Of a stretch of 64,000 nt of DNA, positions 2 through 61,803 are shown in pieces. The notes below the pieces were generated by a model. The model ran no database searches and was not told the origin of the DNA. It worked only from the letters and a program-made list of their open reading frames with translations. Origin of the DNA: a virus. The stretch lies in IMG/VR virus record IMGVR_UViG_3300044971_004534, one strand, 5' to 3'. Made by a program: the position numbers and the translations under genes. The first letter of the stretch is position 1; every line of letters begins with the position of its first letter.

Positions 2-760
2 TATAAGCTGGCTCAAAATAGGTCTTTTTCTTGGGCCAATGTAGAGGGTATTTTATACACACCAGAGGCCATGAGAGACTTGAAAGATTTTAAGAAGTCT
101 CAGGAAGGAAGAAGTGCTAAGGAAATTAGCATGCTTATTAAAGACGTTATTGATAGAAGACAAATTAATTTACGGAATGTAGAATCCAGGTCTGCTGCAA
201 ATCCTTACATTCCAAACGGACCAAAAGAAAAAATAAAGATTCACGTATTTGAGCCAAGAGGTGTTGGACTCGCTGAAGGTCCCGGAAAGGCTTACAGAAT
301 AGGAGCACAACTATGTTCTTTAGGAGGAGAAACTTCAGAATCATCAGACAAATACATTCGAGAGCAAGAATTTGAAAGAACTGGACGTAAATTTTTAATT
401 ATCAAGAGAGTATTTGAAAATCATGATGAAGATTATTTGCCATGGATTAGTCTATATAATTCTTCTCACGTAGATGATTGTCCAAAATACACATTTCAAA
501 TTCAAAGAAAAGAAAACCAAGAAAAAATAGTAGATCTCAATCCTCAAAACCCTTTTGACTGGTTAGTAAATTCTGTAAAGATGATACGCGATAGAAATAT
601 TGAAGGCATCAGCATTCATAAAAGAATGCTTGAAGGAAAATCAGAAGAAGAAATTTTTAGTATTTTAGAATTTATGACAAAAAATCAGGCTAGATTCCCA
701 TCTAATATATTAAAAGATATAGGCAGGTGGATCGAGGAATACGTGGACAGAACAGGGTAA
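2..760 (+). CDS. hypothetical protein, 5' end cut by window edge; begins with (W)YKLAQ tag
   Basis: The frame of listed ORF 71..760 stays open back to nt 2 (YKLAQNRSFSWANVEG...). The first readable codons match the WYK[LIF][AS]Q N-terminal motif seen at 5891, 23590 and 30111. Confidence 0.6.
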   Translation, partial: YKLAQNRSFSWANVEGILYTPEAMRDLKDFKKSQEGRSAKEISMLIKDVIDRRQINLRNVESRSAANPYIPNGPKEKIKIHVFEPRGVGLAEGPGKAYRIGAQLCSLGGETSESSDKYIREQEFERTGRKFLIIKRVFENHDEDYLPWISLYNSSHVDDCPKYTFQIQRKENQEKIVDLNPQNPFDWLVNSVKMIRDRNIEGISIHKRMLEGKSEEEIFSILEFMTKNQARFPSNILKDIGRWIEEYVDRTG

Positions 761-780
761 TACATCTTTGGAAAACACAC

Positions 781-1236
781 ATGAACTATTCTGAATTTTA
801 TGGAACTGGAGATGACGCAAAAAGGCTTAAGCTTATTCTTATGTCTTACGATGAAGAGTATGCACGTCAAATGAAAACATATCCAGAGCAAAAAAATGCT
901 TTAACAACTCAGTTTAAGTCATATTCAAATCTAGTTATTAATCAACTTAATAGCTACACAGAATCAGGAGAAAGCGCTCCAAGTGGAGTCAGAATGCTTG
1001 GAATTGTTTTCAAAAAGAATTTAAATGTTGCCGCTAAGTACGAGCTTATTAATCCTGTAGAATTTTCTACATATACTGACGCAGCAAAATCTTTCTATGT
1101 CAGTCAAAACTTAGACGTAAGTGAATACTTTGATAATTCAGAAAATTCAACAGAACTGTTTAATAGAATTAATACTAGTCAGGATAATCCTACAGGTATA
1201 ACATACTTAGATTCATCAGGTTCATTAGTGAGGTAA
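781..1236 (+). CDS. hypothetical protein
   Basis: Listed ORF 727..1236 starts at a GTG inside the upstream gene. The first ATG (MNYSEFYGTGDD) at 781 follows the upstream stop at 760. Confidence 0.55.
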   Translation: MNYSEFYGTGDDAKRLKLILMSYDEEYARQMKTYPEQKNALTTQFKSYSNLVINQLNSYTESGESAPSGVRMLGIVFKKNLNVAAKYELINPVEFSTYTDAAKSFYVSQNLDVSEYFDNSENSTELFNRINTSQDNPTGITYLDSSGSLVR

Positions 1237-1241
1237 TAAAG

Positions 1242-1520
1242 ATGTCTTTTAGAGAAAAAATCGGATTTGAAAAACAAGGCGACCAATGGGTTCGCACCCA
1301 GGCAGCGCTAAACGCTGCTGCTCCTAAAGCTATAAGTAGAATTGAAAAACTTATATATTCTGCTGATACTGCTGCAGGTATTGGAGACATGAACGGAGCT
1401 GCGTTTCATGCGAATTGGGCCAGAATTGTCATACAGAGTGCACTAGACAATGGTTTTATTACTCAAAATCAGCACTCAACATACATGTCTCAAATTAACG
1501 CTATTTCTCCGCCAGAATAA
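1242..1520 (+). CDS. hypothetical protein
   Basis: 92-aa ORF with a GAGG Shine-Dalgarno site 8 nt upstream of the ATG. A strong terminator hairpin follows it. Confidence 0.65.
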   Translation: MSFREKIGFEKQGDQWVRTQAALNAAAPKAISRIEKLIYSADTAAGIGDMNGAAFHANWARIVIQSALDNGFITQNQHSTYMSQINAISPPE

Positions 1521-1532
1521 TAGAGATATTAG

Positions 1533-1571
1533 ATACAACAAAGGGGAGCTTTTGGCTCCCCTTTGTTGTAT
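1533..1571. terminator. bidirectional rho-independent terminator
   Basis: Perfect 17-bp stem atacaacaaaggggagc / gctcccctttgttgtat with a 5-nt loop. It sits between convergent genes 1242..1520 (+) and 1590..2228 (-). Confidence 0.8.
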
Positions 1572-1589
1572 TATAAAATGTAAAAATAA

Positions 1590-2228
1590 TTATTTACGCT
1601 TACGTTGACTAAAGCTGCAAAGACCTGCAATACCAATAAGAGATACTGCTCCTGGTGCAGGAATTGCGTTTACTCCAAAGCCACAGTAGTCAATAAAGTT
1701 TCCCTGAGTAGATCCGCCTGTGGCGCTAACTGCCTGAAATGCGAATCTTGTCAGATTTCCTATACTAACTATAGATCCTGAATGAAATTGCCAAGCAGTT
1801 TCATCTGCAGTAAAGTTGCCCTGATACAGAACAGTGTCATCTCCGTTGCCATACAGCTGATCTGCGCCAAGATCAATTATTGAAAGCTGCATGACATCAA
1901 CTCCGTATCTGCCTCTGTGAGCAAAATGCCAATTAATTGTATTGAAATCTCCTAAGCCATTGACGTGCTGATACAAAGTAGAATCGTAGTTTGCATTGAG
2001 TTCAGCGAATGAACTTCCCTCATATGCAGGCACTCCAAGAAATCCATCTGACCAAATCTCCAAATTGTTGTCTGGTGCTGTGGTTGCCCAGTTCAAAGTT
2101 GGGTCAGAACCAGAAAAGAAACCATAACCCCAGGTCTGAAAATCTTCAAAACCACCGTTTACAAGATCTGCCATACAACTTGTAGAAATAACTAAAGTAG
2201 ACAAAAATGCACAAGCGTATTTAACCAT
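1590..2228 (-). CDS. secreted protein with N-terminal signal peptide and PEP-CTERM-like C-terminal sorting signal
   Basis: N-terminus MVKYACAFLSTLVISTSCMA then DLVNGGFEDF, a start typical of lectin/CBM-like domains. C-terminus IPAPGAVSLIGIAGLCSFSQRKRK has a P-x-P motif, a TM helix and a basic cluster. Sampled GC is ~48%, above neighbouring genes. Confidence 0.75.
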   Translation of the reverse strand: MVKYACAFLSTLVISTSCMADLVNGGFEDFQTWGYGFFSGSDPTLNWATTAPDNNLEIWSDGFLGVPAYEGSSFAELNANYDSTLYQHVNGLGDFNTINWHFAHRGRYGVDVMQLSIIDLGADQLYGNGDDTVLYQGNFTADETAWQFHSGSIVSIGNLTRFAFQAVSATGGSTQGNFIDYCGFGVNAIPAPGAVSLIGIAGLCSFSQRKRK

Positions 2229-2269
2229 TTAATAAACCCTCCTTATTAAAATTGGTAATGGTGTAAAAA

Positions 2270-3064
2270 TTATATTCTTTTACGATTATGAAAAAATTGA
2301 CTAAAAGCAACTACAGTAAAAGCTCCAGGTGATGGAACGGACGGTGGCACATAGTATCCACCAGTGTCTATACCATAGTACTCTCCAAATCCATAGTTAG
2401 TTCCAAGAGCAAGTGTAGTGCTATAGACATCAAATGGCAGCAAACTAGGAGTAAAAAAGGCTGCGTATGGATCTGCAAATCCTGTTTGAGCTGCCAAAGA
2501 GGTAACCGGGGCTAAATTAATATCTGTCGCCAAAGCTGCCTGCACAATTTGCTTTGTCAATTTATTTTGCTCATTAGTAACAACAAGTGGAGCTTCAACT
2601 GGCTTATCTCCACCAATTTTATTTTCTTTGGGAAATCTAGCAAGTTCATCTGAGATCTGATAGCCACGAGTCTGTTCTTTGTTGTCAATTTTGAATGGTT
2701 TCTGCCAGTGCCCTTGATAAGGTTGGCCAAACAAAGCGGAATTTGACTGCTTATTACTATTATTGTCTTTTTGTTCTTGATTTTTTGGAGCGTCTGCTTT
2801 CCCAATATCAGAAGCTGCAGTTATGGCAGAATTCATGCCATTAATCGCTGACATAAGAGACTGTACTCCACGTTCACCAAGCAATGTGATTGCAGAAGTA
2901 CATACGATGGTCATAACGTAAACTTTTTTCTCTAAGCTTTTAACCTTAGATTTTGCTTCTTCACACATTCTGGCACATGAAGAGCATCCCCCAGAAATGC
3001 TCTCAACATGCGAGTGTGAAACTGGCGTAGGCGCAGGCTGCTGAATGTCTTTTTTAATCCCCAT
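2270..3064 (-). CDS. envelope protein with hydrophobic signal/anchor and PEP-CTERM-like C-terminal tail
   Basis: C-terminus VPSPGAFTVVAFSQFFHNRKRI shares the P[AS]PGA-hydrophobic-SQ..RKR pattern with the gene downstream. Hydrophobic segment VYVMTIVCTSAITLL lies near the N-terminus, so the true start may be an internal Met. Confidence 0.65.
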   Translation of the reverse strand: MGIKKDIQQPAPTPVSHSHVESISGGCSSCARMCEEAKSKVKSLEKKVYVMTIVCTSAITLLGERGVQSLMSAINGMNSAITAASDIGKADAPKNQEQKDNNSNKQSNSALFGQPYQGHWQKPFKIDNKEQTRGYQISDELARFPKENKIGGDKPVEAPLVVTNEQNKLTKQIVQAALATDINLAPVTSLAAQTGFADPYAAFFTPSLLPFDVYSTTLALGTNYGFGEYYGIDTGGYYVPPSVPSPGAFTVVAFSQFFHNRKRI

Positions 3065-3204
3065 TTGTACCCCCCGATACTTTGAAGTTGCGAATATACT
3101 TAATTTAAAAATACGATATATTATTTCATTTTCCTTTTGTAATAAGCACTCATCTTATTTGATAATAGTCAGAAAGGTAATGGATTTATTTTTAGTAATA
3201 TTTT

Positions 3205-5904
3205 ATGTATTTAAAGTATTTTATGAATATAGAAAAAACTGCACAACTTAATTGGTTTCGAGGAATAAGGGATCGCATTCGTGGCAACAAGCCAGATGAA
3301 AGCGGTCAAGAATTGTCATTTAATGAACAAGAACTGCGTGGGCTTGAAGAAATAGAAAGAAGAAAGACTGAAGAAGAAAGAAAAAGAGTTGATAAGCTGG
3401 TCCAAGAATCAAAAGAAAGAGCTGAAAGCTTTGGTAGACCTGACAATATTCCCGGAAAATTTGAATTAAGTAGATCTAGTATTCAAAATATATTGTCTAT
3501 GGACAGAGATACTTTATGGCATAAGCTTTGTGCATCTTTTGAGAATTGTTCTCCTTATGTTTCTGAAACTACGGCACAAAGGGGAAGAATAATAAGATAT
3601 CTTGTAGACACTAGGCAAGGCGATTATCGAGGTGGCTGGGGAAGTGTGCTTAGGAGCATAGATTTTCTACTGCAAGGATTAGAATTAGATATACGTAATG
3701 CAGGCAATAATAGTAAAGCGGCAATATCTCATAATAATATGCAAGAAATTTTTACCAATAGAGATTGGCTCATGGCAAATAAAGATGGAATTCAACGAGC
3801 CTATGCACAAGCATCTCCAGACTCTATTAATAAAGAAGTTTTAAATAAATTTTTAACAAATAAACAATCGTATTATGCTCGACGTGATGCAGCTATAGAA
3901 GTATGGGCATCATTTTTAAAAAATAAATATCAATATTACTATGGAAATACATTAAGTGATCAGTATTTTTATAATATTCATCTGTATGCGGATAGGTTAT
4001 GGGAAGATTTTAAATTATATTTTCGATTGATGTCAGGTAATCTATTCCACAACATAGGCATTCAATTAGGTAAAAAATACTTACCAGAAGATATGCAATC
4101 AATTTCTGATGGTGTTCATGCAATAGATGTAAGTATGTTCGACATAGCAAAGCCAGCTAATTTAATGCAATCACGCAGTAATGCAAGGGGTGAAAATGAT
4201 ATCTTTTATAATTGGACCGTGAATAAATGGAAAGAATTTGTAGAAGATACACATTTAATGCTAAGCGTCTTTGGATTTAATTTAAAAGGTGTGTCAAATA
4301 TTAATAATATAAATGGAGAAAATTTATATTACAATATGATGCAAAAAATAATTATGATAGAAAATATTGTTAATAGAGATCCTTTTATAAGTCATATTTT
4401 TAATAACAGTAGATTAGATTTAGGAGATAGCTATTATATATATGCACAAATTAAAGACAAAATGAGTGCTGATCATAATCCAAATAGAGAAGAATATTTA
4501 GTTTCTATATTAAATCAAATTTATGTTAATCAGCATGGAGGGTACTCAAGAGCAATATCTGAAGCTTCAGATGAAAGTTTGAGATCGGCGGCAGATAGGG
4601 TGCCATTTGCAGTAGAACATATTTTATTGCATTTAGAATTTGGTGAAAATATGTATAATGTTATTAATAATTTTGACCAATATCAATCTGCTCTAAATTC
4701 ATACAGAGAAAAACAGCATTCAGCATTAAAAAAAGTAAGAAACGTTCTAGCCAATCCTGATTTAACACAGATGTCTCCCGAAGAGGCAAGACAGTATTTT
4801 GTAGAAAAACTTAATAGACTAGCGAATAGGGAGTTTGAAGGTAGCAATATCGAAAAGGCAAAGCAAGAGCAAATTCTTGATTCTCCATTTGAGCACACAT
4901 CAGTGATAAGACCGTCTACCTTTCCTGGTCAAGCAGCATTTAATAGCAACTCCTTGCCTGAATTGCAAGGAACTCCAATTTCTTTTAATATAGCAATTTA
5001 TCCAAAAAAGAAAGAAAATGACCCGGAAAACTTTGCACAAGTTCTTGCTCCAGGTGGGCACGCACAAGATGGACTAAACTTTCATCATCAGAATATTCCG
5101 TCATTAGAAAATAAGAAATATTATAGTCATATACTTGGCTGGATAGGTGGATGGGTTGACGTAGTAGGCTCGAACATGTATATAGCAGAAATTCAAAGCG
5201 ACGTTATGCAACATACGTCTTACATGAAAGATCCAGAAAAGTCAAAAACAAAATTGAACGAAGAACTTAAAAAGCAAATGCAAGAATTGCAAAAAGAAAA
5301 AGACAATCTTGCTAAACAATCTACAGAAGGTATAGAAAAATTCTATGATAAAAGAATTGAAGAGTTAGAAAAAAAGAGAGATAGCGCAAATAATGAGGCA
5401 ATGAAGCAGCAAATGGATACTGCAATAAAAAAATTAACAGAACAAAAAAACGCTAAAGAAGATCCGTGGGTTAAACTAAGAAAAAAAATAAAAGACATAG
5501 AAAATGTTATTGTTGAAATTAAAAATCAAATTCAAGAGCTTATTGATTATGAAAGAAACACTAACGATCAATGGAGAAAAAGGCCGCAGTTTGCTGATGT
5601 AAAGTCAAAAATAGAAAATAGATTTTCTGAATATGTCGATGTTTTTTATAATGAAGCAATTTACTATTGTGCTCAACTCAAAATTAAAGGTTTATGGATA
5701 GTGCATTCAGATCTTTTAGCTGCAGTCTGGCGACATTTTGCAACGGCTGATACCGTAGAAATGTATAAGAAAATATACGACAAACGAGCGATGGAGATGG
5801 GAGCAGAAAAGAAGGGCAACTGGTGGCACTTAGATCTTACCAAGAAAATGCCTAAGTATGCAAGCACAAATTGGTATCAAAGGACTAAAAATGGGATGGT
5901 ATAA
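3205..5904 (+). CDS. large protein, paralog 1 of a tandem pair (unknown function)
   Basis: 899-aa ORF; the start may be the ATG at 3223 (MNIEKTAQLNWFRG). The C-terminal ~330 aa align with 5891..8986: FEHTS, FNIAIYPKK, GLNFH, GWIGGWVD, YIAEIQSDVMQ, ENRFSEYVDVFYNE, MYKKIYD, WWHLDL, MPKYAS, NWYQ. Confidence 0.85.
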   Translation: MYLKYFMNIEKTAQLNWFRGIRDRIRGNKPDESGQELSFNEQELRGLEEIERRKTEEERKRVDKLVQESKERAESFGRPDNIPGKFELSRSSIQNILSMDRDTLWHKLCASFENCSPYVSETTAQRGRIIRYLVDTRQGDYRGGWGSVLRSIDFLLQGLELDIRNAGNNSKAAISHNNMQEIFTNRDWLMANKDGIQRAYAQASPDSINKEVLNKFLTNKQSYYARRDAAIEVWASFLKNKYQYYYGNTLSDQYFYNIHLYADRLWEDFKLYFRLMSGNLFHNIGIQLGKKYLPEDMQSISDGVHAIDVSMFDIAKPANLMQSRSNARGENDIFYNWTVNKWKEFVEDTHLMLSVFGFNLKGVSNINNINGENLYYNMMQKIIMIENIVNRDPFISHIFNNSRLDLGDSYYIYAQIKDKMSADHNPNREEYLVSILNQIYVNQHGGYSRAISEASDESLRSAADRVPFAVEHILLHLEFGENMYNVINNFDQYQSALNSYREKQHSALKKVRNVLANPDLTQMSPEEARQYFVEKLNRLANREFEGSNIEKAKQEQILDSPFEHTSVIRPSTFPGQAAFNSNSLPELQGTPISFNIAIYPKKKENDPENFAQVLAPGGHAQDGLNFHHQNIPSLENKKYYSHILGWIGGWVDVVGSNMYIAEIQSDVMQHTSYMKDPEKSKTKLNEELKKQMQELQKEKDNLAKQSTEGIEKFYDKRIEELEKKRDSANNEAMKQQMDTAIKKLTEQKNAKEDPWVKLRKKIKDIENVIVEIKNQIQELIDYERNTNDQWRKRPQFADVKSKIENRFSEYVDVFYNEAIYYCAQLKIKGLWIVHSDLLAAVWRHFATADTVEMYKKIYDKRAMEMGAEKKGNWWHLDLTKKMPKYASTNWYQRTKNGMV

Positions 5905-8900
5905 GTTTGCACAACTTCATGCAATGAAGTGCTCTCCAGTAAACTTGAAAAAGTTACTGCAATTTGCACACACTCCAGGACAGGCTTATTTGTTCGAGAT
6001 GGGCGAAGAACATTCTGCTATGCAAAAACACATAGAAAGACTTGGCGGAAAAAGATATAAAATTCAATTTTTACTCAACACGTTTGATGCAATGCTTACC
6101 GATCTAGATAACACAAAATTAGATTTTGAAGTAGATCAAGATAGGATTGCAAATCGCATAGATTCCGACTATGTAGAAGAATCATATGGTTATATTTTTG
6201 ATGAAGATGACACTAAGTTTTGGGAAAACATAGATGGCATAAATGATCAAGTTTTAGAATTTATTGAAGAATCTTGGGATGTTTCTGAAGATGACTTTGA
6301 GAGTCGCTTATTTCATTATCCAGTAAGTAGTCGTGAACCAAATAATTCAAAAGAACTCGTTAGTCTCAAAGACATTTCAGAAGAACTGTCTAGTTTTGCG
6401 TATTTTGGAGATATGATTTCTTGCATAGGCAATTTGAAACATGATAAATATGTAGCTCGTGATATCATGAGAGAAATAGCGGATATAGATATTGATTTAA
6501 GGTCAATGGGAGAATCAGCAACCGGCATTCATGTTCATACGTGGGCTAAAAATAAAGGCATTGATCTGACGCTTGCTGTGGTTCAAAAAGCAGCAGGTGG
6601 AGAACAAAATGTTGAGATCGCAAAATACGATCCAGATTCAGCAAAACAAATAGCACAAAAAGCTTACTCTAATGTTGCAAATTCTTGGGTTGACAGTATA
6701 GAAAAATTACCACATTCTAAAACAGATTTAGAAGAAGCAATTGAAGAAGCATTCAGAGATCAGGTAAAAGAATCATGGTGGGAGTCTAACAAACAACGCT
6801 TTATGGAAGATGCAGTTGATAATGAAATTGAAAGTACTGCGGATTCATTTAATTATGATGATAGAAGATGGGCTAAAAACACATTGCCCGCAGAATCAGT
6901 AGACCCAAACGTCAGACATCATGTAAGTAAAACTTTTACGGAAGCATTAAAGGAGCACAGCTGGCTAGATAGAGACGAAGATTCTGGTCATGTACAGGTT
7001 GAAGCTAGTAGCTATTTTGCAAACTTAGGAGTTAAAGATTGGAGTAAAATAGCGGATGATATACAGGAAATGGCGGATGACCACGCAATGACTGGTTACG
7101 AAGATTATGTAAAAGAAATAAGATCATATACATCTATGATTAATTGGATTGTAGCAAGTGATCCAGACTTGTCTGCAATCTTTTCTGATGAAGACGCAGA
7201 CCCGACAACACTTACGCAGACTGCTACGGATTTGGGGCAAATAGTTAAAACTTCATATGAGGTTATATCTCTTATGCCTCAGGACGATGCAAGACGCATG
7301 GAGCAAAGCATAACTGCAGAAAATCCAGAGATTGAAGACTGGATTAAAGCCTTAAGAGAAAGAGAAGAAGTAGAAAGACAGGCGAGAGAAACTCAAGCTG
7401 CCATGCTTGCGGAAGAAGAGGCAAGAAAAGCTATACAAAGATCAAATAGAGAAAGAATTGAAAAAGAAGTTTCTGAAGAGTCTAAAAAAATTAATGATCC
7501 AAATATCGGCTCAAGGTCTTTCACAGAAGAGCAAAAGCAGCAGGCAAAAACTCAAAACATTATTGGTAAACCATTTGAGCACATGTCAACATTGCGGGTT
7601 GATCAAAAATACCCTGGAGTGAGCGCCTTTGTGTTAAAGCCAGTACCTATGGAAAGTGAAGTTCCTTATAAGACTTTCCATATTGCTATATATCCAAAAA
7701 AGGAGCAAAGCGATCCGACAAGACTGCATGATGTCTTTGATAGAAGTGCGGGTTTAAATTTTCATGGATTTAGTTTTCCTGAACATGTGAATGAAAATTA
7801 TTACGATCTTATTGGATGGGTTGGCGGCACTATTGACCTTTATAATAAGATAATGTACGTCACAGAAATACAAAGTGATGTAATGCAAAATACCCCTCGC
7901 ATGAAAGATGTTTCCAAGAGCATTGTTGCTTTGAACGAGGGAAAAAATAGCTTATTAGCTGAAGCTGAAAAAATAAAAACATATATTACCACAAATGATA
8001 TCAATGCATATTATGACAAGAGAATACAAGATTTAAAATTAAAAATTCAATCCATGAGTGACAGTCCTGCTGCAATGCAAATGCAGCAAGCTGTTTTAAA
8101 ATTAGAAGAGTTAAAGAATAAGGGTGTAGACCCTTTTGAAAAAGAAAGACAAAAACTACACGATATTGACAATAAACTTAAAGAGATTAATAGGCAAATA
8201 AATGATATAGAAGAATTTGATAAGAAACCTTCTGCCAAACTAAATAAACCTCATCTTTCAGAATTAAGATCTCGAATAGAAAATAGATTTACTGATTGGG
8301 TAGATACCTTCTATAATGAAATATTTATGTATTGTTCTCGCTTAGGAATAAAACATTTATATATAGCAGCTTCTTCTTATTTGTATCTAACATGGAGACA
8401 GTATGCCAAGGCATCTACACTAGAATTGTATAAAAAGATATATGATACAAAGGCTGAGAAGTACGGAATGCGTAAAGTACATTATAAGGGTGTCACGTAT
8501 TGGCATTTAGATCTATCAGAAAACATGCCAAAGTTTGCGAGCAAAGAAAGGTTACAAATGTCTAAAAATAATTGGTATAGGCAAATTAAAACTGCAATGG
8601 ATTTTAGCAGTATTTACATTGATGATATAAAAAGAAAATTTTCTAATGGAGAGATTACGGAAGAGCAAATGCAAGCGCAGATACGTGAAAGATATATGGA
8701 ACACACACAAGATCCAACTACTCGTGACCCAAAACTGTTTATTATAGAAGCAAAAACTTTCTTTGATACGATTAAGCATATTGAAGGCAGAGAAAGGGGT
8801 GGAGAAGATTCTGAGTTTTCAAAAGCTCAATTTATGAGGGAAGCATTGGGTCAGTTTTTAGAATTTAATGGTAAGAAATATACAGACAGAGACGGCAAGC

Positions 8901-8986
8901 TAGAAGAGCCATTTAAATCAATACTTCAAAGATTGCTTATACAGAAATTTAATTACGACATGGATTTAGATGAAATGGTAGAGTGA
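5891..8986 (+). CDS. large protein, paralog 2 of a tandem pair; N-terminal MGWYKFAQ tag
   Basis: Listed ORF 5858..8986. The ATG at 5891 gives MGWYKFAQ and a 14-nt overlap with the upstream stop. It shares FEHMS, FHIAIYPKK, GLNFH, GWVGGTID, YVTEIQSDVMQ, ENRFTDWVDTFYNE, LYKKIYD, YWHLDL, MPKFAS and NNWYRQ with paralog 1. Confidence 0.85.
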   Translation: MGWYKFAQLHAMKCSPVNLKKLLQFAHTPGQAYLFEMGEEHSAMQKHIERLGGKRYKIQFLLNTFDAMLTDLDNTKLDFEVDQDRIANRIDSDYVEESYGYIFDEDDTKFWENIDGINDQVLEFIEESWDVSEDDFESRLFHYPVSSREPNNSKELVSLKDISEELSSFAYFGDMISCIGNLKHDKYVARDIMREIADIDIDLRSMGESATGIHVHTWAKNKGIDLTLAVVQKAAGGEQNVEIAKYDPDSAKQIAQKAYSNVANSWVDSIEKLPHSKTDLEEAIEEAFRDQVKESWWESNKQRFMEDAVDNEIESTADSFNYDDRRWAKNTLPAESVDPNVRHHVSKTFTEALKEHSWLDRDEDSGHVQVEASSYFANLGVKDWSKIADDIQEMADDHAMTGYEDYVKEIRSYTSMINWIVASDPDLSAIFSDEDADPTTLTQTATDLGQIVKTSYEVISLMPQDDARRMEQSITAENPEIEDWIKALREREEVERQARETQAAMLAEEEARKAIQRSNRERIEKEVSEESKKINDPNIGSRSFTEEQKQQAKTQNIIGKPFEHMSTLRVDQKYPGVSAFVLKPVPMESEVPYKTFHIAIYPKKEQSDPTRLHDVFDRSAGLNFHGFSFPEHVNENYYDLIGWVGGTIDLYNKIMYVTEIQSDVMQNTPRMKDVSKSIVALNEGKNSLLAEAEKIKTYITTNDINAYYDKRIQDLKLKIQSMSDSPAAMQMQQAVLKLEELKNKGVDPFEKERQKLHDIDNKLKEINRQINDIEEFDKKPSAKLNKPHLSELRSRIENRFTDWVDTFYNEIFMYCSRLGIKHLYIAASSYLYLTWRQYAKASTLELYKKIYDTKAEKYGMRKVHYKGVTYWHLDLSENMPKFASKERLQMSKNNWYRQIKTAMDFSSIYIDDIKRKFSNGEITEEQMQAQIRERYMEHTQDPTTRDPKLFIIEAKTFFDTIKHIEGRERGGEDSEFSKAQFMREALGQFLEFNGKKYTDRDGKLEEPFKSILQRLLIQKFNYDMDLDEMVE

Positions 8987-9030
8987 TTTCTACGACAAAT
9001 AAGTAAAAGCTCTATCATAGGAGAACTTAC

Positions 9031-9174
9031 ATGGGAAAAAATGTTAGAAATAATTACAGCGACAATGGCATGACTAGAAGAAACTGGAAGGCAAAAATGA
9101 TGAAGAAAAAGCATGACCGAATAAGAAATCTTGAAGGCTGCAATGCAAGAAAGCAAGCCGAAAACCCTCAGTAA
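9031..9174 (+). CDS. small basic protein (47 aa), below the ORF-track cutoff
   Basis: MGKNVRNNYSDNGMTRRNWKAKMMKKKHDRIRNLEGCNARKQAENPQ. AGGAGAA lies 6 nt upstream of the ATG, and a terminator hairpin overlaps the stop. Confidence 0.4.
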   Translation: MGKNVRNNYSDNGMTRRNWKAKMMKKKHDRIRNLEGCNARKQAENPQ

Positions 9175-9186
9175 TGAGGGTTTTTT
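9161..9186 (+). terminator. rho-independent terminator
   Basis: aaaaccctca gtaa tgagggtttt forms a 10-bp stem followed by a T run. Confidence 0.75.
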
Positions 9187-9209
9187 AATTAAAGCTTGTA
9201 ATATATTAC

Positions 9210-9662
9210 ATGTTTAAAGTAAATGATATTAAAATATCAAAATATGACTGGATCAATATCGGCATACATGCTGGTTGGATCAAGACATCTCATATGGGGC
9301 ACGCTCCAAATGTCTACGATATGACTGCGCATATGTTGCATTACAGAAGCTTGTACGAAGAACACATCAGTCCTGTTATAAAAAAATTGGCAGTTCATTT
9401 GCAAAAAGGTCTTTTTAATAAAGAAATGGCTTTGGCTTCTTTTGAAAGAATTGCTCATAAAGGAATAGAAATGTATATTAAGGAGCATGGTGAAATAGAC
9501 GTGACTCCAATGATTGTAAGATCTATAGCTGAAAACTTATTAGACAACTACATGGAAGAGATAACAGATGAGCTTTTGACTATAAGTGACGAAAATATTG
9601 TGTCGAAAAATAAGGATGAGAAGAAAAAAGCTCCCAATAAACGCAGAGACCGTAATCCATAG
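9210..9662 (+). CDS. hypothetical protein with N-terminal W-x3-G-x3-GW tag
   Basis: N-terminus MFKVNDIKISKYDWINIGIHAGWIKTSHMG matches the K[ILM]S..[DE]W...G...GW motif shared with 20639, 21839, 28060, 47729, 48968 and 49758. Confidence 0.7.
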   Translation: MFKVNDIKISKYDWINIGIHAGWIKTSHMGHAPNVYDMTAHMLHYRSLYEEHISPVIKKLAVHLQKGLFNKEMALASFERIAHKGIEMYIKEHGEIDVTPMIVRSIAENLLDNYMEEITDELLTISDENIVSKNKDEKKKAPNKRRDRNP

Positions 9663-11629: not shown

Positions 11630-12397
11630 TTAGAACTTGACTGAACCACCAAAGCGAACGATAAGATCAAGCGGCGAACCCGTGTATTGAGCGAATGGGA
11701 CATCAACTCCGAAGTTGAGGTCTGCATTGGGGCAAACGCTCCAGTTGAGTGCTGGACCGATTGTGCTCAAGCTGTCTCCGCTATCAAGATACCAGAAATT
11801 ATAATTAACTGCCAAATCAAGCTTATCAACAAGCTCATAAGCAAGATCTGCATTAACATTCATGATGTCTTCTGTAGTAAAGCCGCCAAAAACTGGGATA
11901 TAGTCACCATTAGTGTTAAATTCCCAATTCATGCCAGCACCCCAGGTCAACTTGTCAACAAAGGTAGTTCCCTCTGTGGCAAGGCCAAGGACTACGTTTA
12001 CGCTGTTACCACCGTAGCCAGCAGAGCTGGTTGGGAGCTTAACATCAACCGACAGGTCAGCCTTATCCATAAAGCTCAGGGGCTTGTGGACGAACGTCCA
12101 ATCTGCGCCCAAGTCAAGCATGCCTGCACCGGTGACTCCGTCAGTATAAACTGGCAAGGTCAGGTGGGTAGTAAGATCCTTAATTGGGGTCTGCCAGTTA
12201 AGCTGCTGAACAAACTGGGTAACGTTGCCAGTGTCCAGGTTGTAGAAATTGATCTTTTCATCAAAGCTAAAGTCGTTTAGCTTGAAGAAAGATGCAAATC
12301 CACTGTCGTTTGTCGCAACAGCAGGCTGAGCTGTCTGAGCCAAGGCTGAGACACTAAGTACTGATGCTCCGACGATTCCAATGATCGTTTCCTTCAT
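11630..12397 (-). CDS. outer-membrane beta-barrel (porin-like) protein
   Basis: Signal peptide MKETIIGIVGASVLSVSALAQTA. Alternating amphipathic strands (DLAVNYNFWYL, DLNFGVDVPF). The C-terminal RFGGSVKF ends in Phe, as OMP barrels do. Two sampled 60-nt lines are 52-57% GC versus ~25-35% in flanking genes. Confidence 0.75.
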   Translation of the reverse strand: MKETIIGIVGASVLSVSALAQTAQPAVATNDSGFASFFKLNDFSFDEKINFYNLDTGNVTQFVQQLNWQTPIKDLTTHLTLPVYTDGVTGAGMLDLGADWTFVHKPLSFMDKADLSVDVKLPTSSAGYGGNSVNVVLGLATEGTTFVDKLTWGAGMNWEFNTNGDYIPVFGGFTTEDIMNVNADLAYELVDKLDLAVNYNFWYLDSGDSLSTIGPALNWSVCPNADLNFGVDVPFAQYTGSPLDLIVRFGGSVKF

Positions 12398-24358: not shown

Positions 24359-25540
24359 ATGAGTAACAATATACAAAGAAGCGATTATTCGTTATATGAT
24401 TTTACCATTTGCACTCTTGCTTGCACAAAACAAAAAAAATATGCTGATCGCCTAAAAGACTATATAGATTTTTATGGTTTTAGATTCAATAATAAATCTT
24501 TAAAAATAAAATTTGTTTTTTTAGTGGAAGATGAAATCAGACCAGATTTTCTTCATAAAGAACATATTTGGTATAACTGCCCTGGACTTCCAATGTCTAT
24601 GAGATGGGCAAAGTACTTGAAAGATGAACATGTTGATTCTAAATGGATTATGCAAGTAGATGATGATTCAAGCACAGATATAGATAAAACAGTAGAAATT
24701 CTAAATCAGTACTATGATCATCAAGATAGCATGCTGTTAATGGGTGGGAGAAATACCGACTTAGAGCTTGGTCAACAAAACATATTAAAATCAATGAAAA
24801 TTGAAAATATATTTTTTGAATCAAACGATATCAGTAAATTTGAAGGCATTCCCTATTTTGTTCACGCATGGGAGCCTTCAATAATCTCTTACAGTGGTAT
24901 GCACAAAATGAAAAAATGGGATCGCTTGAATGAGTATTTTTCTTTATGCAAAAACATAAGACCTACATTTGGAGATCAAACTCCTTACGTAATTGCAAAG
25001 CTGTCAAAGATTCCCATAGTAGAAGCTTCTTTTTTATGCCCTTTTAATTGGGCTAATATGTATAGTGCAATAAATAAACAAGGTAGATATTCTCACATAC
25101 ATTATGTTACAGACAAGTGGAATTTTTTTACTAACTTTAAAATAGCTATGAAAAATAATTTGACTTTTGAAAATGAAAAAGAAACAAAAAAATATTTATC
25201 AAATCACATAAAAAGTAATGCTATTTTAGACAAAAACATAAGGTCAATACGTGATGAGCAAAAACATATTTTAGACAAAGACGTAAAATTAAAGCTAACA
25301 AACAAGATAAATAGCAAAAATGTTATGATAGTAAATATCATGAGAAATGGATCTATTGTTGTGGACAATAAGGACATGATTTGGCAACATAATGGAAAAG
25401 ATAGGTTGTCTATATTTAATAAAAAAACTAAGATAAAAGTTGGAGAGATTTTAAAAAACGCACATACAAAAGAATATTTTGCGACTCTTGACATGAACGG
25501 AAAAACTAGCGCTACAGCATGGGTAGGCAAAGAAGTTTGA
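24359..25540 (+). CDS. hypothetical protein, possible GT-A glycosyltransferase (DXD)
   Basis: WIMQVDDDSSTDIDK provides a DXD-like motif. The gene lies in the glycan cluster. No stronger evidence. Confidence 0.3.
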   Translation: MSNNIQRSDYSLYDFTICTLACTKQKKYADRLKDYIDFYGFRFNNKSLKIKFVFLVEDEIRPDFLHKEHIWYNCPGLPMSMRWAKYLKDEHVDSKWIMQVDDDSSTDIDKTVEILNQYYDHQDSMLLMGGRNTDLELGQQNILKSMKIENIFFESNDISKFEGIPYFVHAWEPSIISYSGMHKMKKWDRLNEYFSLCKNIRPTFGDQTPYVIAKLSKIPIVEASFLCPFNWANMYSAINKQGRYSHIHYVTDKWNFFTNFKIAMKNNLTFENEKETKKYLSNHIKSNAILDKNIRSIRDEQKHILDKDVKLKLTNKINSKNVMIVNIMRNGSIVVDNKDMIWQHNGKDRLSIFNKKTKIKVGEILKNAHTKEYFATLDMNGKTSATAWVGKEV

Positions 25541-25553
25541 AAGGAAATTATAC

Positions 25554-26648
25554 GTGTATGATTATGTAATCGTTGGATCTGGAATATTCGGAGCTGTTTG
25601 TGCAAGAGAGCTAACAGATAGTGGTAAAAAATGTCTTGTAATAGACAAGAGGAATCATATTGGCGGAAACTGTTATACTGAAAATTATAATGGCATAAAT
25701 GTTCACAAATATGGTCCACATATTTTTCATACCAATAGTGATTATGTTTGGAATTATGTAGGCAAATATTGTGCATTTCATAAATACTCTCATCGTGTCA
25801 AGGTTATTTACAAAGATAATATTTATTCTTTTCCAATAAATCTAATGACTCTTTATCAAGTGTGGGGGGTCAAAAGTCCACATGAAGCAGAAGAAAAATT
25901 AAAGTCTATTAGAAAAAATATAAAAAACCCAAAAAACATGGAAGAATGGGCTGTTTCTCAAATAGGAGAAGAACTTTATACTATATTTATACGTGATTAT
26001 ACAAAAAAACAGTGGGGAAAAGATCCTTCAGAATTACCAGCTGGCATCTTAAAAAGATTGCCAATTAGAATGAATTTTAATGATGATTATTTTGAAGACA
26101 AATATTGCGGTATACCTGTTGGGGGATACACTGGTATATTTGAAAAAATGCTTGACGGTATAGAAGTGCATTTGTCAACTGATTATTTTTCAGATAAAAA
26201 TACATTTGCAAGACTAGGTTCAAAAATAATATATACAGGGGGATTAGATGAATTTTTTGATTATGATCTTGGGAAACTTGAATGGAGAAGTTTAAAATTT
26301 GATCATTTACATCTAAATGTCAAAGACTTTCAAGGATGCTCAATTGTAAATTATCCAGAAATAAACATTCCGTATACACGTATTTGTGAGCACAAACATT
26401 TTGAAAATGGCAATCAAAGCCATACTGTAATAACAAAAGAATATCCAGACGCATGGGAAGTGGGAAAAGAAAAATACTATCCAGTAAATGATGAAAAAAA
26501 TAATATACTTTCAAAAAAGTACAAAAACAGAATAGACAACAGTAAATACATATTAGGTGGAAGGCTTGCAGACTATATGTATTATGATATGCATCAAGTT
26601 TTTGCATCAGCACTTGCTGCAGTAAAATCGGAGTTAAACAATGCATAA
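25554..26648 (+). CDS. glf: UDP-galactopyranose mutase
   Basis: GTG start preceded by AAAGGAAA. (M)YDYVIVGSGIFGAVCARELTDSGKKCLVIDKRNHIGGNCYTE...HKYGPHIFHTN...YTKKQWG...GIPVGGYT...YRSLKF...YTRICEHKHF...YYPVND...GGRLADYMYYDMHQV tracks E. coli Glf as I recall it, nearly end to end. Confidence 0.9.
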   Translation: MYDYVIVGSGIFGAVCARELTDSGKKCLVIDKRNHIGGNCYTENYNGINVHKYGPHIFHTNSDYVWNYVGKYCAFHKYSHRVKVIYKDNIYSFPINLMTLYQVWGVKSPHEAEEKLKSIRKNIKNPKNMEEWAVSQIGEELYTIFIRDYTKKQWGKDPSELPAGILKRLPIRMNFNDDYFEDKYCGIPVGGYTGIFEKMLDGIEVHLSTDYFSDKNTFARLGSKIIYTGGLDEFFDYDLGKLEWRSLKFDHLHLNVKDFQGCSIVNYPEINIPYTRICEHKHFENGNQSHTVITKEYPDAWEVGKEKYYPVNDEKNNILSKKYKNRIDNSKYILGGRLADYMYYDMHQVFASALAAVKSELNNA

Positions 26649-35663: not shown

Positions 35664-35978
35664 ATGTTAGAACAATTTATTCTCTCCACTATAGGTGGTA
35701 TTGGAATGGCTACTCTAATTGTAGAAAAGGGCGATGACTTTCCAATTAAACCTTTTAAAAACATCGCTCACACAATAGTTAAAAAGTTGCTAGGCGACTC
35801 ATGGGCAAAGGTATTTGAATGCACTGTATGCATGTCTTTTTGGACGGCATTGCTATGTGAAGCTTTTTTGTTTATGTTTTCAAAGACTTTCACATGGCCA
35901 GTAAGCGGGTTTGCTGCTGCAGGTATTTCATTTTATCTAATTGATTTTTTGAACACCATAGACAATAGAAAAGGATGA
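35664..35978 (+). CDS. small membrane protein (DUF1360-like, from memory)
   Basis: The ATG at 35664 gives MLEQFILSTIGGIGMATLIV. The FECTVCMSFWTALLCEAFLF C..C.SFW motif and two further hydrophobic helices are present. Confidence 0.55.
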   Translation: MLEQFILSTIGGIGMATLIVEKGDDFPIKPFKNIAHTIVKKLLGDSWAKVFECTVCMSFWTALLCEAFLFMFSKTFTWPVSGFAAAGISFYLIDFLNTIDNRKG

Positions 35979-36808
35979 ACAACATGAAGAAAATTAAGAA
36001 AGAAAAAGTAAAAAAGCACAAGATAAAGCAAGATCCCGAGCTGTGGAAAAAACTTGATGATCTAAGAAATGCTGTTAAAGATTTTCACAACAGTGAGCCA
36101 TATAAGAGAGTAAGAGCTCAGCTAGCAGAGCTCAATTACCCAATAGTTATTAAGTTAGCTGATTTACTTCATCATAAGTATCCAGAAACTGATAGAGATG
36201 ATCTTCAGGGCTTTGGAAGCATAGGTCTTCTAGATGCCATAGATAAATTTGATCCATACAAAGATATTCAATTTGAAACATTTGCAACTTATCGCATATT
36301 TGGATCTATGTACGATGAAATGAGAAAACTTGATTGGGTTCCCAGATTAACTCGCCAGCGGCATTCTAAGGTTGAAAAAATACGTGACAAATTTATTGCA
36401 GAAAATGGAAGAGTGCCAACTAATGAGGAAATGATGGACATGGTTTCAGGAAGTTCTGTAACAGAAAAACAAAAAACTATAGACGACAGTATAATCAAGA
36501 TGTCCTACTCTATTAATAAGTTGCCGTTTGAAGATGAAGAAGATGATTTTTCTAGCATGCATGTTGATAAAAAACCTTGTCAAATAAAAGAGCTAGAAAG
36601 AAAAGAATTTTTTGCTAATAAAATTGCACCAGGATTAAACGATCTTGAAACAAGATTTGTGTACTTAGTGTATTACGAAGGAAGATCTTTAAAAGAGGCT
36701 GCACAAATACTACAAATTAAAGAAAGTAGAAGTTCTTCTGTTCACGAAGCTGCTCTGAAAAAGCTAAAGGAAATTTTTAAGGAAAAAGATGAATTGATTG
36801 TGAGATAA
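35975..36808 (+). CDS. sigma-70 family RNA polymerase sigma factor (group 3/FliA-like)
   Basis: Region 2: DDLQGFGSIGLLDAIDKFDPYKDIQFETFATYRIFGSMYDEMRKLDWVPR. Region 4 HTH: YYEGRSLKEAAQILQIKESRSSSVHEAALKKLK. Confidence 0.85.
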   Translation: MNNMKKIKKEKVKKHKIKQDPELWKKLDDLRNAVKDFHNSEPYKRVRAQLAELNYPIVIKLADLLHHKYPETDRDDLQGFGSIGLLDAIDKFDPYKDIQFETFATYRIFGSMYDEMRKLDWVPRLTRQRHSKVEKIRDKFIAENGRVPTNEEMMDMVSGSSVTEKQKTIDDSIIKMSYSINKLPFEDEEDDFSSMHVDKKPCQIKELERKEFFANKIAPGLNDLETRFVYLVYYEGRSLKEAAQILQIKESRSSSVHEAALKKLKEIFKEKDELIVR

Positions 36809-57630: not shown

Positions 57631-60600
57631 ATGGCAACAAACCCAACAATTCAATTTAAGAGAAAAACAAGTGCAGCAGGGGCTCCTGCATCTCTCAGTG
57701 CAGGTGAACCAGCATTCAATACTGTTGAAAATTTCCTATATGTTGGTAATGGCTCTGCAGTTAAGTGGGTTGGTGCCGAGATTCTTGACCACACAACGAC
57801 TGCATTTACAAGTACGACAAGTCTTGCTACTCGTAAGGCAATTGGTGATATTTTTGCTCCATTAAGAAGTCCAGTTTTTACTGGAACAATTACAGGAAAT
57901 AATGTAGTTCTTGCTGGAGATATAGCTGTTAATGGTGGTGACATCACTTCTACTTCCAGTACATTTAATTTGTTAGCAAGTAAAACTGATGGCTTTACTC
58001 TTAATATTGGTCCTAATACTGGATTTAGTAATACTACCACAATAAATATAGGAGCTACTTCTGTTGATGGAGCAACTACTGACATCAATATTGGCCATGG
58101 TTACTCAGGTACAAGAAACGGGAATATTACTATTAGTAGTAAAGCAGTTACCATTGGCGCTGGTGCAGGTATAACTATTGACACTTCCTCTATTGGCACT
58201 GATACAGCTACTACATTTAATTTACTAAATTCTACAGTTACAAATGCAAATATATTTGGTGCTGCTGCTACTTTTGTAGTTGGAGCAAGCGGATCTGGAA
58301 CCGCCAGTATACGAAACGCTACAACTAGATTTGGTGGAACTTCTGGTGGTGCAACTATTGCAACACAAACAACAAGCGGATTAAATCATCTTAGTATTAT
58401 TCCTTCAGGAAACTTAAGACTTTCAGCAACACGTTCAGATCTTTCTGGTCTTGGTACTCAGGGCACTATTACGATAGTGAACGGAAGCGGTGGAACTGCA
58501 ACAAGTGTCAGTGGAGCCCCGCTTTTGCTTGGCGATTATGCTGATTCATTTGGTAATCCTCAGCCTGGTGAACTTAGAATACTAGAATCAGGTGGTTCTA
58601 ATTATACTGGATTTAAAGCTCAGGCAATGAGTTCTGATTATATCTATACTCTGCCTTCCGCATTCCCTGGATCTTCTGGTTATGTGCTACAATCTGATAC
58701 TTCAGGCAATATGTCATGGGCAGCTCCTGCTTCATCTGCAAGCGTAGGGGTTACTGCAACAAGTGCAAGCACAAATTATAAAATGATATTTACAGATGTT
58801 AATGCTTCAAATACATCTGCATCATTGTTCATTGATACAACTTCTGGCATAGTATTTAATCCTTCTGCTAATAATCTTACTGTTGCTGGAAGTGTTTATG
58901 CAAATGCAAGCTTGTATCTAGGTGCAACATCTACTGGGCTCAATAAAATATATATTCCAGAAACTGATCCAACTGGTGGGTTTGCAATTAATGAATTAGC
59001 AAATGATATTGATCATATTTACATAGAAAAACAATTTCCAGGAGCAGCTGGTCCATTTAATAATGTTTATTATATGAAAGTCGGAGATGCTACAACGTAT
59101 GGAGGCTACGATGCTTTCCCTGTTGGTCAGCCTATTAATGTAACAGACTATGAGAGCAATGTTTCGTCGTTTGTCAATATAGGCGCTGGTGGATATCTCG
59201 CAGCAACCAATACGGGATATTCTTATTACAAAACTATAAACATTGGTCCAGATACAGGAACTGGCAAGACAACATACATTAATCTTGGAGCCGTCAATGG
59301 CACATCATCCAACTTGACCACAGTTTATGGTGCCATGTCTGTTACTGGCAATATTTCAACCAATCAAAATCTTGTTGTCAATGGTGGTACTGTAACCAGT
59401 ACTGCAACTACATTTAATCTTTTAAACACAACAGTCACAAATGCAAATGTTCTTGGAGACTTAAGAACATTGTCAATAGGCAATAATACGACTACTGGTC
59501 AAGTCGTGAATATGTTTACTAATGCAGCTGGTACGTCTACTTATAATTTTGCTACAGGTAATACTGCTAATGGTTCTACAAAAACTATAAATATCGGACA
59601 AAATAGTGGAGCTGGAGTAACAAATGTAAATATTGGTGGTGGCTTAAACGGTAAAACATTGATTGAATCTTCTATTATAGATCTAAATTCTGCAACTATT
59701 TCAAGTAACGCAACTGTTTTAAGTCTTTTTGCTACAAATCTTACAGTTCAAGCTTTTCATAATGCTCAAACTCTTTCATTAGGTGCCACTACAGGAAACG
59801 CAACTATTAGAAATGCTAACACAAACATTAATGGGACTCTGACCGTTACAGGTGCTACAGTGATTCAAGGAGCGCTTACGCTAAACAGCTCTCTTACTGT
59901 AACCGGGGCTACAACTTTTCAGGGTGCTCTTTCTACAAACAGTACTCTTTCAGTTACAAGTAATGCAACGTTTGGGTCTAATATCATAGTAAATGGTGGT
60001 AATATACAAACCACTTCTTCTACGTTTAATCTAGTTACCAATACTGCATCTGTAATTAATATTGGAACTACATCAGGTAGTTCTATAAATATAGGAAATG
60101 GTGGATCTACAACTCAATTTAATGGTAATATAGAAATTAAAGGCGCTTCTGATACTTCTACTGTTGGAGCTGGTTCTTCTACAAACGTTAATTTGTTTAA
60201 TACTACAGTAACTGGTTTGAATATCGGAGCTTCTGCAAATATTATCAATATAGGATCTTCAAATAGTACAACCTATTTTGCAGGTGGAGTAGATATTGCA
60301 AGTGCTAAATCATTTATGGTCAATGGCACAGCAGTTCTTAGCTCTTCCAGTTTAGGAACAACAGTTACGAATTCTAGCTTAACGAGAATAGACAGTTCCA
60401 ATCTTACTCTAACTGGAGACCTTGCTGTAAATGGCGGAGACGTAACATCTACGGCCACTACTTTCAATCTTCTGAATTCTACAGTTACTGGTCTTAATAT
60501 TGGTGGTGGTGCTAATACAGTTAATATAGGATCTACAACTGCTGTTATTAATCTTGGTACTGGCACCAACGGCGCTACAGTTAACGTTAAGGGTAACCTT

Positions 60601-61263: not shown

Positions 61264-61283
61264 TACAAATTAATTAAGATAAT

Positions 61284-61313
61284 AAAAAGGGCGATGTTAA
61301 TATCGCCCTTTTT
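61284..61313 (+). terminator. rho-independent terminator
   Basis: aaaaagggcgat gttaat atcgcccttttt forms a 12-bp stem immediately after the fibre gene. Confidence 0.8.
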
Positions 61314-61344
61314 ATTATAATTCCGATAAATTTTTGGAGGTTTT

Positions 61345-61548: not shown

Positions 61549-61557
61549 GAGATATGA

Positions 61558-61794: not shown

Positions 61795-61803
61795 GTTTTA
61801 TAA

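Follow-up and report, generated by a model that had tools for sequence, protein, structure and literature searches.

Near the start of the 64,000-nucleotide stretch of viral DNA analysed here (IMG/VR virus record IMGVR_UViG_3300044971_004534; hereafter the window), two adjacent genes, A and B, encode proteins that end in a proline-x-proline motif, a hydrophobic segment and a cluster of basic residues. Such an ending resembles the PEP-CTERM signal, a C-terminal tag associated with exosortase-type protein sorting in bacteria, and a preliminary description of this DNA proposed that a phage encodes a pair of such tagged proteins. Comparison with cellular and viral relatives suggests that phages carrying these genes have borrowed a bacterial surface-sorting tag and altered it.

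Organization of the locus

Gene A (1590..2228, minus strand) encodes a secreted protein of 212 amino acids (aa) that resembles a carbohydrate-binding module (CBM) and carries a PEP-CTERM-type tail; gene B (2270..3064, minus strand), 41 nt upstream of A, encodes a phage-specific membrane partner of 264 aa. Both open reading frames (ORFs) were recovered at the positions first reported for them, with exactly the C-termini that had been quoted. A Shine-Dalgarno sequence, AAGGAGG, can be read on the minus strand at 2238..2244, 9 nt 5′ of the ATG of A. When all ORFs of at least 60 aa in the window were compared, a C-terminus made of P-x-P, a hydrophobic stretch and basic residues was found in A and B only.

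The genes on either side (71..1520, and those from 3205 onward) lie on the plus strand, and the pair thus forms an island opposite in orientation to its neighbours, as had been described. Its two borders differ in how well they support the elements assigned to them. Between A and the convergent gene at 1242..1520 (plus strand) there is a bidirectional, intrinsic-terminator-like hairpin (1532..1572) with a perfect 19-bp stem (folding free energy −31.6 kcal/mol, z = −9.55; 0 of 200 shuffles were as stable), in agreement with the terminator originally proposed. At the other border, upstream of B, the divergent intergenic region at 3065..3204 (140 nt) is a presumed promoter. It is AT-rich as claimed, with a guanine-plus-cytosine (GC) content of 25%, but its sigma-70-like matches are at the level of shuffled sequence: one weak minus-strand match (3227-3200) does not exceed the shuffle expectation, and a wider scan around the region was no richer than shuffles. 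The higher GC content attributed to the island was overstated: the window averages 36.2% (standard deviation 4.0), and A (41.6%) and B (40.4%) lie about 1.3 standard deviations above it, an offset that roughly 8-9% of windows of the same size reach.

A and B are a self-contained two-gene envelope cassette of a freshwater tailed phage of about 400 kb, and identical A and B proteins sit on contigs of 401-406 kb. The cassette is kept in all near-identical contigs; flanking genes vary between phage lineages. Its description as a moron fits in so far as the unit is self-contained and occurs in changing contexts, and fits less well in that the pair is conserved across a large phage group, its GC offset is weak and its promoter is not demonstrated.

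Gene A: a secreted protein with a predicted carbohydrate-binding fold

The product of A begins with a signal peptide (residues 1-20, MVKYACAFLSTLVISTSCMA; 2169..2228, minus strand), read from the sequence and modelled as an N-terminal helix, which would be cut at an A-x-A-type site before DLVNGGFE; here too the first reading held. A hydrophobic N-terminus, A-x-A and the following DLVNGGFE or DLVDGSFE are conserved throughout the A family, which comprises 161 homologous sequence clusters. The homologues listed have one common plan and are nearly all 200-215 aa long: the signal peptide is followed by DLV(N/D)G(G/S)FE and a domain of some 165 residues, after which come [IV]-P-x-P-G, a hydrophobic stretch that varies, and RRRR.

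The domain itself (residues 21-186; 1671..2168, minus strand) has a mean column identity of 66% in the family alignment. The AlphaFold model of A (predicted local distance difference test score, pLDDT, 86.5, with most of the domain above 90) consists of an N-terminal helix, a CBM-like beta-sandwich (jelly-roll) of 10 strands and a C-terminal helix. A Foldseek search with the sandwich matched CBM4-2, CBM16, CBM22, CBM61 and a porphyran-binding CBM (E 1e-6 to 1e-5, probability 1.00, target-normalised TM-score 0.58-0.70). On these models the mature domain is predicted to have a CBM fold, which bears out the lectin-like or carbohydrate-binding domain that had been suspected after DLVNGGFE. Like A, the members of CBM4, CBM16, CBM22 and CBM61 are beta-jelly-rolls with an NGGFE-type first strand. 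However, sequence identity to them is 10-17%, A has no sequence-family match in Pfam, NCBIfam (even at E ≤ 10) or PHROG, and the A module stands alone on a membrane tail whereas those CBMs are attached to enzymes.

The A-type beta-sandwich is a widespread adhesin-type module that lacks a Pfam model. Among viral structure models the fold usually lies inside tail fibres. Domains of this type (NGSFE...TTA.D..IE.W...FAELNANY..LYQD...HRGR) are also seen inside giant multidomain surface proteins of cellular genomes (loci L008-L018), including Actinomadura, Nonomuraea, Chondromyces, Kiritimatiellia, Sunxiuqinia and Gram-positive metagenome-assembled genomes (MAGs).

The tail of A and its cellular counterparts

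By its published definition, the PEP-CTERM signal has 24 residues, consisting of the motif, 14 hydrophobic residues and a basic cluster, and it occurs together with a signal peptide (Haft et al. 2006, PMC1569441). The tail of A has the layout of this definition: its 24 residues (189-212; 1593..1664, minus strand) read IPAPG-AVSLIGIAGLCSF-SQRKRK, and the protein ends ...IPAPGAVSLIGIAGLCSFSQRKRK (also written ...AIPAPGAVSLIGIAGLCSFSQRKRK). The hydrophobic stretch and basic cluster, GAVSLIGIAGLCSF followed by SQRKRK, are modelled as a terminal helix.

Homology provides stronger evidence about this tail than profile scores do. A search with a profile of the A family found 2859 relatives among 1.84 billion representative proteins. 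Many are 205-250 aa long and have the same signal peptide and domain followed by a canonical VPEP[SAGT] tail, and in a joint alignment the P-A-P of A superimposes exactly on their P-E-P. Named cellular relatives come from Methylobacter, a Gemmataceae MAG, Anabaena cylindrica, Microcystis aeruginosa and Colwellia; many have PF07589, proteins with this domain that align with A along their whole length are named PEP-CTERM by NCBI, and identity between A and the cellular PEP-CTERM relatives is 40-49% over the full length. The cellular VPEP proteins (for example those of Methylobacter sp., the Gemmataceae MAG, Anabaena cylindrica UHCC 0172 and Microcystis aeruginosa W13-11) share the length (about 205-250 aa) and domain order of A but differ in the residues of the motif, in their longer tails and in their ordinary chromosomal contexts. 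Two of these contexts were checked: one gene lies beside an ATP synthase operon and the other near gatC and ftsY, and at neither locus is there a B gene beside the A homologue. Given the full-length homology, the superposition of P-A-P on P-E-P and the cellular contexts, A descends from a cellular PEP-CTERM protein, tail included.

Tails were also scanned on their own against short PEP-CTERM hidden Markov models (HMMs), TIGR02595 with a cutoff of 16 bits and PF07589 with a cutoff of 20.7. Seventy of 100 distinct A family tails matched TIGR02595 at E ≤ 1, PEP_CTERM being the top-ranked model, and 39 matched at E ≤ 0.017 (about 16 bits). The alignment of the A tail from the window spans all 24 positions of TIGR02595. 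One member of the A family (P0098) is called a PEP-CTERM protein by the NCBI pipeline.

A phage clade with a replaced glutamate

In a neighbour-joining tree, 40 sampled phage copies of A form one long-branch clade with no cellular sequence inside it; the viral carriers of the cassette are 40 IMG/VR contigs. The phage tails are distinguished by their motif. Among 110 distinct A tails, the middle residue of P-x-P is Ala in 56, Gly in 20, Ser in 10 and Thr in 9, and the next residue is Gly in 87 of 102. Glu occupies the middle position in one of the 110, as against 68 of 108 tails of cellular homologues, which keep P-E-P or P-V-P. According to the published description (PMC1569441), the Glu of P-E-P hardly varies and is probably the site of recognition. 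The first Pro of the phage tails is also placed uniformly, 21-22 residues from the C-terminus, whereas cellular tails are longer and more variable (−23 to −32).

Within the A family P190 is invariant, P192 is kept in more than 90% of sequences and G193 is conserved, while the transmembrane residues vary. Since the motif residues are kept as the transmembrane residues drift, selection acts on the P-x-P-G motif and not on the helix. Nor is the motif confined to A and B. In some relatives the cassette adjoins further signal-peptide proteins that are unrelated to A and end in ...DNFTYSGGAVPAPGALALLGLAGIVGRRRR and similar sequences; those at L020 7292-8113, L040 10692-11702 and L042 12705-13846 (minus strand) have Glu-less tails of the form AVPAPGALALLGLAG...RRRR and similar, and two of them pass TIGR02595 with 18.1 and 22.5 bits. 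Because unrelated neighbours of the cassette carry the same type of tail, the Glu-less P-x-P-[GS] tail is a property common to several protein families on these phages.

The GC content of the cassette locus ranges from 35 to 60% among carriers, which probably infect different hosts given that spread. Their flanks are not syntenic: DNA polymerase B, RecA, DnaB and ThyX are found in one setting, an epimerase and SNase in another, and VanY, SET, IMPDH and PurA in a third. In L007 a gene adjoining the cassette (8918-9301) encodes a 127-aa holin-like protein with three hydrophobic segments and a KSRRKKIKKG end, and in L022 a weak VanY-like peptidase (7441-8571) is found next to it.

Gene B: the phage-only partner

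In each of the roughly 34 distinct viral loci checked, B immediately precedes A, often with an overlap of 1-4 nt. Its family consists of 50 homologous clusters, all of them without a Pfam domain and outside cellular contexts. Because these clusters are found in phages only, always next to A, and B is absent beside the cellular A homologues that were checked, B is a phage invention coupled to A, with its N-terminal membrane module as the constant part.

The family plan starts with a short N-terminus containing C-x2-C-x3-C and a charged helix that runs into a hydrophobic segment, LTIVCTSAITLLG. In the window the Cys cluster (residues 27-34; 2963..2986, minus strand) stands at the start of a long helix, C27 being invariant and C30 and C34 conserved at 90% or more. 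The hydrophobic segment, YVMTIVCTSAITLLG (residues 48-63; 2876..2923, minus strand), is conserved in the alignment and is a probable signal anchor; the Lys-rich residues ahead of it point to an N-in orientation by the positive-inside rule. There follow a variable, low-complexity middle region, which is disordered, and an almost invariant block, LPFDVYSTTLALGNNYGFGEYYG. In the window this NYGFGEYYG-type block, the most conserved part of B, reads DPYAAFFTPSLLPFDVYSTTLALGTNYGFGEYYG (residues 198-231; 2372..2473, minus strand) and matches no known family; the invariant or near-invariant columns are P206, P210, F211, D212, V213, Y214, T217, L220, G221, Y224, G225, G227 and G231. The structure model of B is poor (pLDDT 59.6) and was excluded from the fold search, with a helix modelled at residues 28-85 and pLDDT of 63-84 over residues 21-60.

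The tail of the B family has P-x-P or P-[ED]-A-G, about 14 hydrophobic residues and N-[ST]-R-K-R. In the window it comprises residues 243-264 (2273..2338, minus strand), VPSPG-AFTVVAFSQFFHN-RKRI, and the protein ends ...VPSPGAFTVVAFSQFFHNRKRI (also written ...SVPSPGAFTVVAFSQFFHNRKRI), with GAFTVVAFSQFFHN and RKRI modelled as a terminal helix. P244 is invariant, the P-x-P lies 21 residues from the end in most family members, as in A, and a true P-E-P occurs in a few. Eight viral loci (L007 7952-8287, L019 224-559 and six more) have a short B of 100-115 aa that consists of the N-terminal module only: it keeps the Cys-rich, coiled and transmembrane parts, is without the NYGFGEYYG block and the tail, and shares about 60 nt with the start of A.

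The phage and its host

The window has the hallmarks of a tailed phage, including tail-fibre and virion-structural PHROG families, a ribonucleotide reductase, an SNF2-type helicase and a 1210-aa protein bearing Mtd_N; most of its genes have no Pfam match. A megablast search with the first 12 kb and a tblastn search with B found no cultured phage relative, and no PHROG family matches A or B. The search of cultured phages with A matched only unverified wastewater contigs labelled as Listeria phage. Four of these unannotated GenBank contigs (OR846807.1, OR848137.1, OR846815.1 and OR848176.1; L066 1691-2188), labelled 'UNVERIFIED_ORG: Listeria phage LM 4-11-1 / 4-14-1', carry a copy of the A domain with 32% identity; the host label is doubtful.

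Clues to the host are few. Among GTDB genomes there is just one close match, a phage-like contig of 9.5 kb that was assigned to a Bacteroidota MAG; another relative is in an Alphaproteobacteria MAG. As these labels conflict, they probably arose as artefacts of binning. For one virion protein, similarity to cyanomyophage proteins and to a protein of a SAR116 phage is about the same (43-45%). Shine-Dalgarno-like motifs precede about 19 of 52 genes in the window, a frequency that speaks weakly against a Bacteroidota host. A 255-aa ORF (11630..12397, minus strand) with a signal peptide (MKETIIGIVGASVLSVSALAQTAQ...) and the end ...RFGGSVKF has no Pfam or PHROG match; its C-terminal Phe is usual for outer-membrane beta-barrels, and this barrel-like gene suggests a diderm host.

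Other genes of the window were noted in passing. Directly beyond the presumed promoter region of the cassette, two very large paralogous ORFs on the plus strand (3205-5904 and 5858-8986; 899 and 1042 aa) have in common a C-terminal region (...IAIYPKK...GW[IV]GG...EIQSDVMQ...) and a Lys/Glu-rich coiled stretch, and belong to no Pfam or PHROG family. A UDP-galactopyranose mutase gene (GLF, 250 bits) adjoins a weak match to a Fringe-like glycosyltransferase (24359-26648, plus strand); both fit a theme of surface remodelling. At 35975-36808 (plus strand) the phage encodes a member of the sigma-70 family in which regions 2 and 4 were recognised. Tail-fibre-like ORFs, the first with Mtd_N, occupy 57631-64000 (plus strand) and are composed of numerous diverged coding repeats, each 45-220 nt long (VNGGDITSTATTFNLLNTTVTNANILG-type). 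A diversity-generating retroelement near the Mtd_N gene was considered and rejected, as the repeats are coding repeats of tail-fibre-like proteins and not a template/variable pair.

What the tails might do

The account preferred here, tentatively and with confidence somewhat short of even, is that A is sorted by an exosortase, released to the outer envelope and bound to glycan there, with B as its partner. Both proteins would be inserted by Sec into the inner membrane of the host, their bodies in the periplasm and, by the positive-inside rule, their basic ends in the cytoplasm. An exosortase-type enzyme, most simply that of the host, would recognise the motif at the membrane interface, cut A from its anchor and hand it to the outer envelope or the exopolysaccharide layer, where the lectin-like domain could bind a surface glycan; B would act as a co-translated membrane partner. 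The phage might gain from remodelling or masking of surface glycans, in that superinfecting phages would be excluded, progeny would be shielded from debris, or cells would aggregate. We infer the exosortase dependence of the A tail from its sequence.

Several observations weigh against this account. The A tail of the window scores 14.7-15.3 bits with TIGR02595 and 15.1 with PF07589, below the cutoffs of 16 and 20.7, and the tail of B in the window matches none of the PEP-CTERM HMMs; of 48 B family tails, only one gives a match even at E ≤ 1. The HMM test suggested for both proteins thus gave a mixed answer, with the window's A under the cutoffs, 39 of the 100 family tails at about 16 bits and B without a match. 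The idea of a pair of PEP-CTERM-like tails accordingly stands for A, through its full-length homology to VPEP proteins, and not for B by this measure. B also has no cleavable signal peptide: its internal hydrophobic segment follows an N-terminus of about 47 residues. The Glu of P-E-P survives in a single one of 110 phage tails, and its loss holds across carriers of 35-60% GC, which argues against reading A as a simple host substrate. The window contains no tRNA genes, the MAG labels conflict, and a host exosortase is not indicated. Proteins of the EpsH type have at least eight transmembrane helices (PMC1569441). Exosortase candidates were sought by counting transmembrane segments (at least five segments in at least 200 aa), and no such polytopic protein was found in the 64-kb window, in about 18 kb of adjoining sequence or up to 10 kb from some 40 viral cassettes; about 82 kb of the 401-406 kb phage genome was covered.

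The main rival, itself somewhat unlikely, takes the tail for a PEP-CTERM signal that has decayed and now anchors the protein permanently in the inner membrane. In that case A, like long B, would stay unprocessed and face the periplasm, and the glycan bound by A would be periplasmic or nascent (peptidoglycan, or lipid-linked intermediates of O-antigen or exopolysaccharide); its binding would block superinfection or tune lysis. The replacement of Glu in 109 of 110 tails and the shortening of the tail relative to cellular ones agree with such decay, as do the varied hosts that the carriers probably infect and the want of an exosortase near the cassette. B, moreover, is held in the membrane at both ends, its N-terminal segment making release by cleavage pointless, and lysis-type genes, holin-like or VanY-like, adjoin the cassette in some relatives. 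Yet a plain anchor needs no invariant Pro, second Pro and Gly at the interface beside a helix that drifts freely; the recurrence of the Glu-less P-x-P-[GS] on unrelated phage neighbours looks like a common recognition signal, and Glu-less sorting variants such as VPLPA-CTERM occur among cellular homologues of A. A further rival casts A and B as a spanin-like lysis pair, B being the inner-membrane component and A the outer one, or A being a unimolecular spanin of the T1 gp11 type. The gene order (a membrane protein, then a signal-peptide protein, often overlapping) and the combination of signal peptide and C-terminal transmembrane segment in A resemble spanins, and in two relatives the neighbourhood includes holin-like and VanY-like genes. 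This is nevertheless extremely improbable: the A family has no lipobox (its A-x-A is cut before D/N-L-V, with no conserved Cys at +1), on which ground the spanin and lipoprotein readings were dropped, B departs from i-spanins in its long cytoplasmic N-terminus and its second helix at the C-terminus, no endolysin or holin is next to the cassette in the window, and A descends from cellular PEP-CTERM proteins that are not lytic.

Two other explanations assign the altered motif a purpose of its own. That the switch from P-E-P to P-[AGST]-P-G marks a phage-specific use of the exosortase pathway, by way either of a matched enzyme or of uncleavable mimics that block the host, is suggested by its occurrence in A, B and unrelated neighbours across very different GC contents, although taken as a whole this is unlikely. 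The first version, in which an exosortase-like enzyme encoded elsewhere in the ~400-kb genome is matched to P-[AGST]-P-G and makes sorting independent of the host, would account for a motif that is uniform across very different GC contents and at least three unrelated phage protein families, and cellular systems with variant C-terminal motifs have sortase subfamilies to match. It is decidedly unlikely, in that no ORF with at least five transmembrane segments and 200 aa was seen in the window, its flanks and the viral loci and the literature search found no report of phage exosortases; in its favour, the part of the phage genome inspected was only about 82 kb. In the second version, tail mimics that resist cleavage would jam the exosortase of the host and shut down its PEP-CTERM sorting and exopolysaccharide matrix during infection. 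Pro-x-Pro, helix and basic cluster are indeed kept while the nearly invariant Glu is specifically swapped, and each phage has at least two such tails; but the A domain is conserved far beyond what a mere decoy carrier would need, and jamming is highly unlikely. If either version were true, a virus would for the first time have been seen to manipulate exosortase sorting.

Comparison with known systems

The sorting tag, the parent protein family and the automatic annotation of one member as PEP-CTERM were already known; what is new is that phages have a large clade of their own, that Glu is systematically replaced in it, that an obligatory partner gene goes with it and that several such tails occur per phage. 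The literature search found no paper on a characterised phage PEP-CTERM cargo, in line with what the preliminary description had supposed; a 2026 preprint reports that a virus-like element of Dehalococcoides has a PEP-CTERM domain. Exosortase sorting is common in environmental diderms but its biochemistry is poorly worked out, and the acceptor, the cleavage site and the role of Glu are largely inferred. The phage clade is a natural experiment that bears on the requirements of the motif, having kept the prolines, helix and basic cluster and dropped the Glu. A with or without B, and with PAPG or PEPS, offers a compact substrate for exosortase-positive hosts and mutants. The cassette could also mark host range, that is, diderm hosts that produce exopolysaccharide, and the GLF gene, the possible glycosyltransferase and the outer-membrane-barrel-like protein of the same window point to extensive remodelling of the infected surface.

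Compared with the PEP-CTERM/exosortase system itself (EpsH, XrtA), A has the same C-terminal Pro-x-Pro, about 14 hydrophobic residues, basic cluster and signal peptide. There is further likeness in a body without a Pfam match, in more than one such protein per genome and in a gene placed behind a large intergenic region. The phage cassette differs in that Glu is replaced by Ala, Gly, Ser or Thr followed by Gly, that it is phage-encoded, that its partner B has no cellular counterpart and that no exosortase or exopolysaccharide locus was seen with it. Exosortase-type signals can be Glu-less, as VPLPA-CTERM (TIGR03370) and VPXXXP-CTERM (TIGR04143) illustrate, and one Methylobacter homologue of A is annotated as VPLPA-CTERM; however, only 2-3 of 100 phage tails reach these models, and P-[AGST]-P-G fits the general PEP-CTERM model best. 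PepA, a floc-forming PEP-CTERM protein, reportedly acts together with exopolysaccharide at the cell surface, according to work on Zoogloea and Aquincola. Its model (NF033554) matches 18-42 of 100 phage tails at the level of the tail; outside the tail it has no similarity to A.

Among phage-encoded envelope proteins, the closest parallels are the morons and superinfection-exclusion proteins, such as Bor and Lom of lambda, Llp of T5, Imm and Sp of T4 and SieA of P22. Morons, like the cassette, encode envelope proteins, are self-contained units equipped with a terminator of their own and lie on the opposite strand from their neighbours. To our knowledge, Bor, Lom, Llp, Imm, Sp and SieA are targeted as lipoproteins, outer-membrane barrels or plain membrane proteins and never by a PEP-CTERM-type tag. 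A and B differ from morons also in being a pair conserved across many phage backbones, and the cassette represents a new class of envelope cargo for large freshwater phages.

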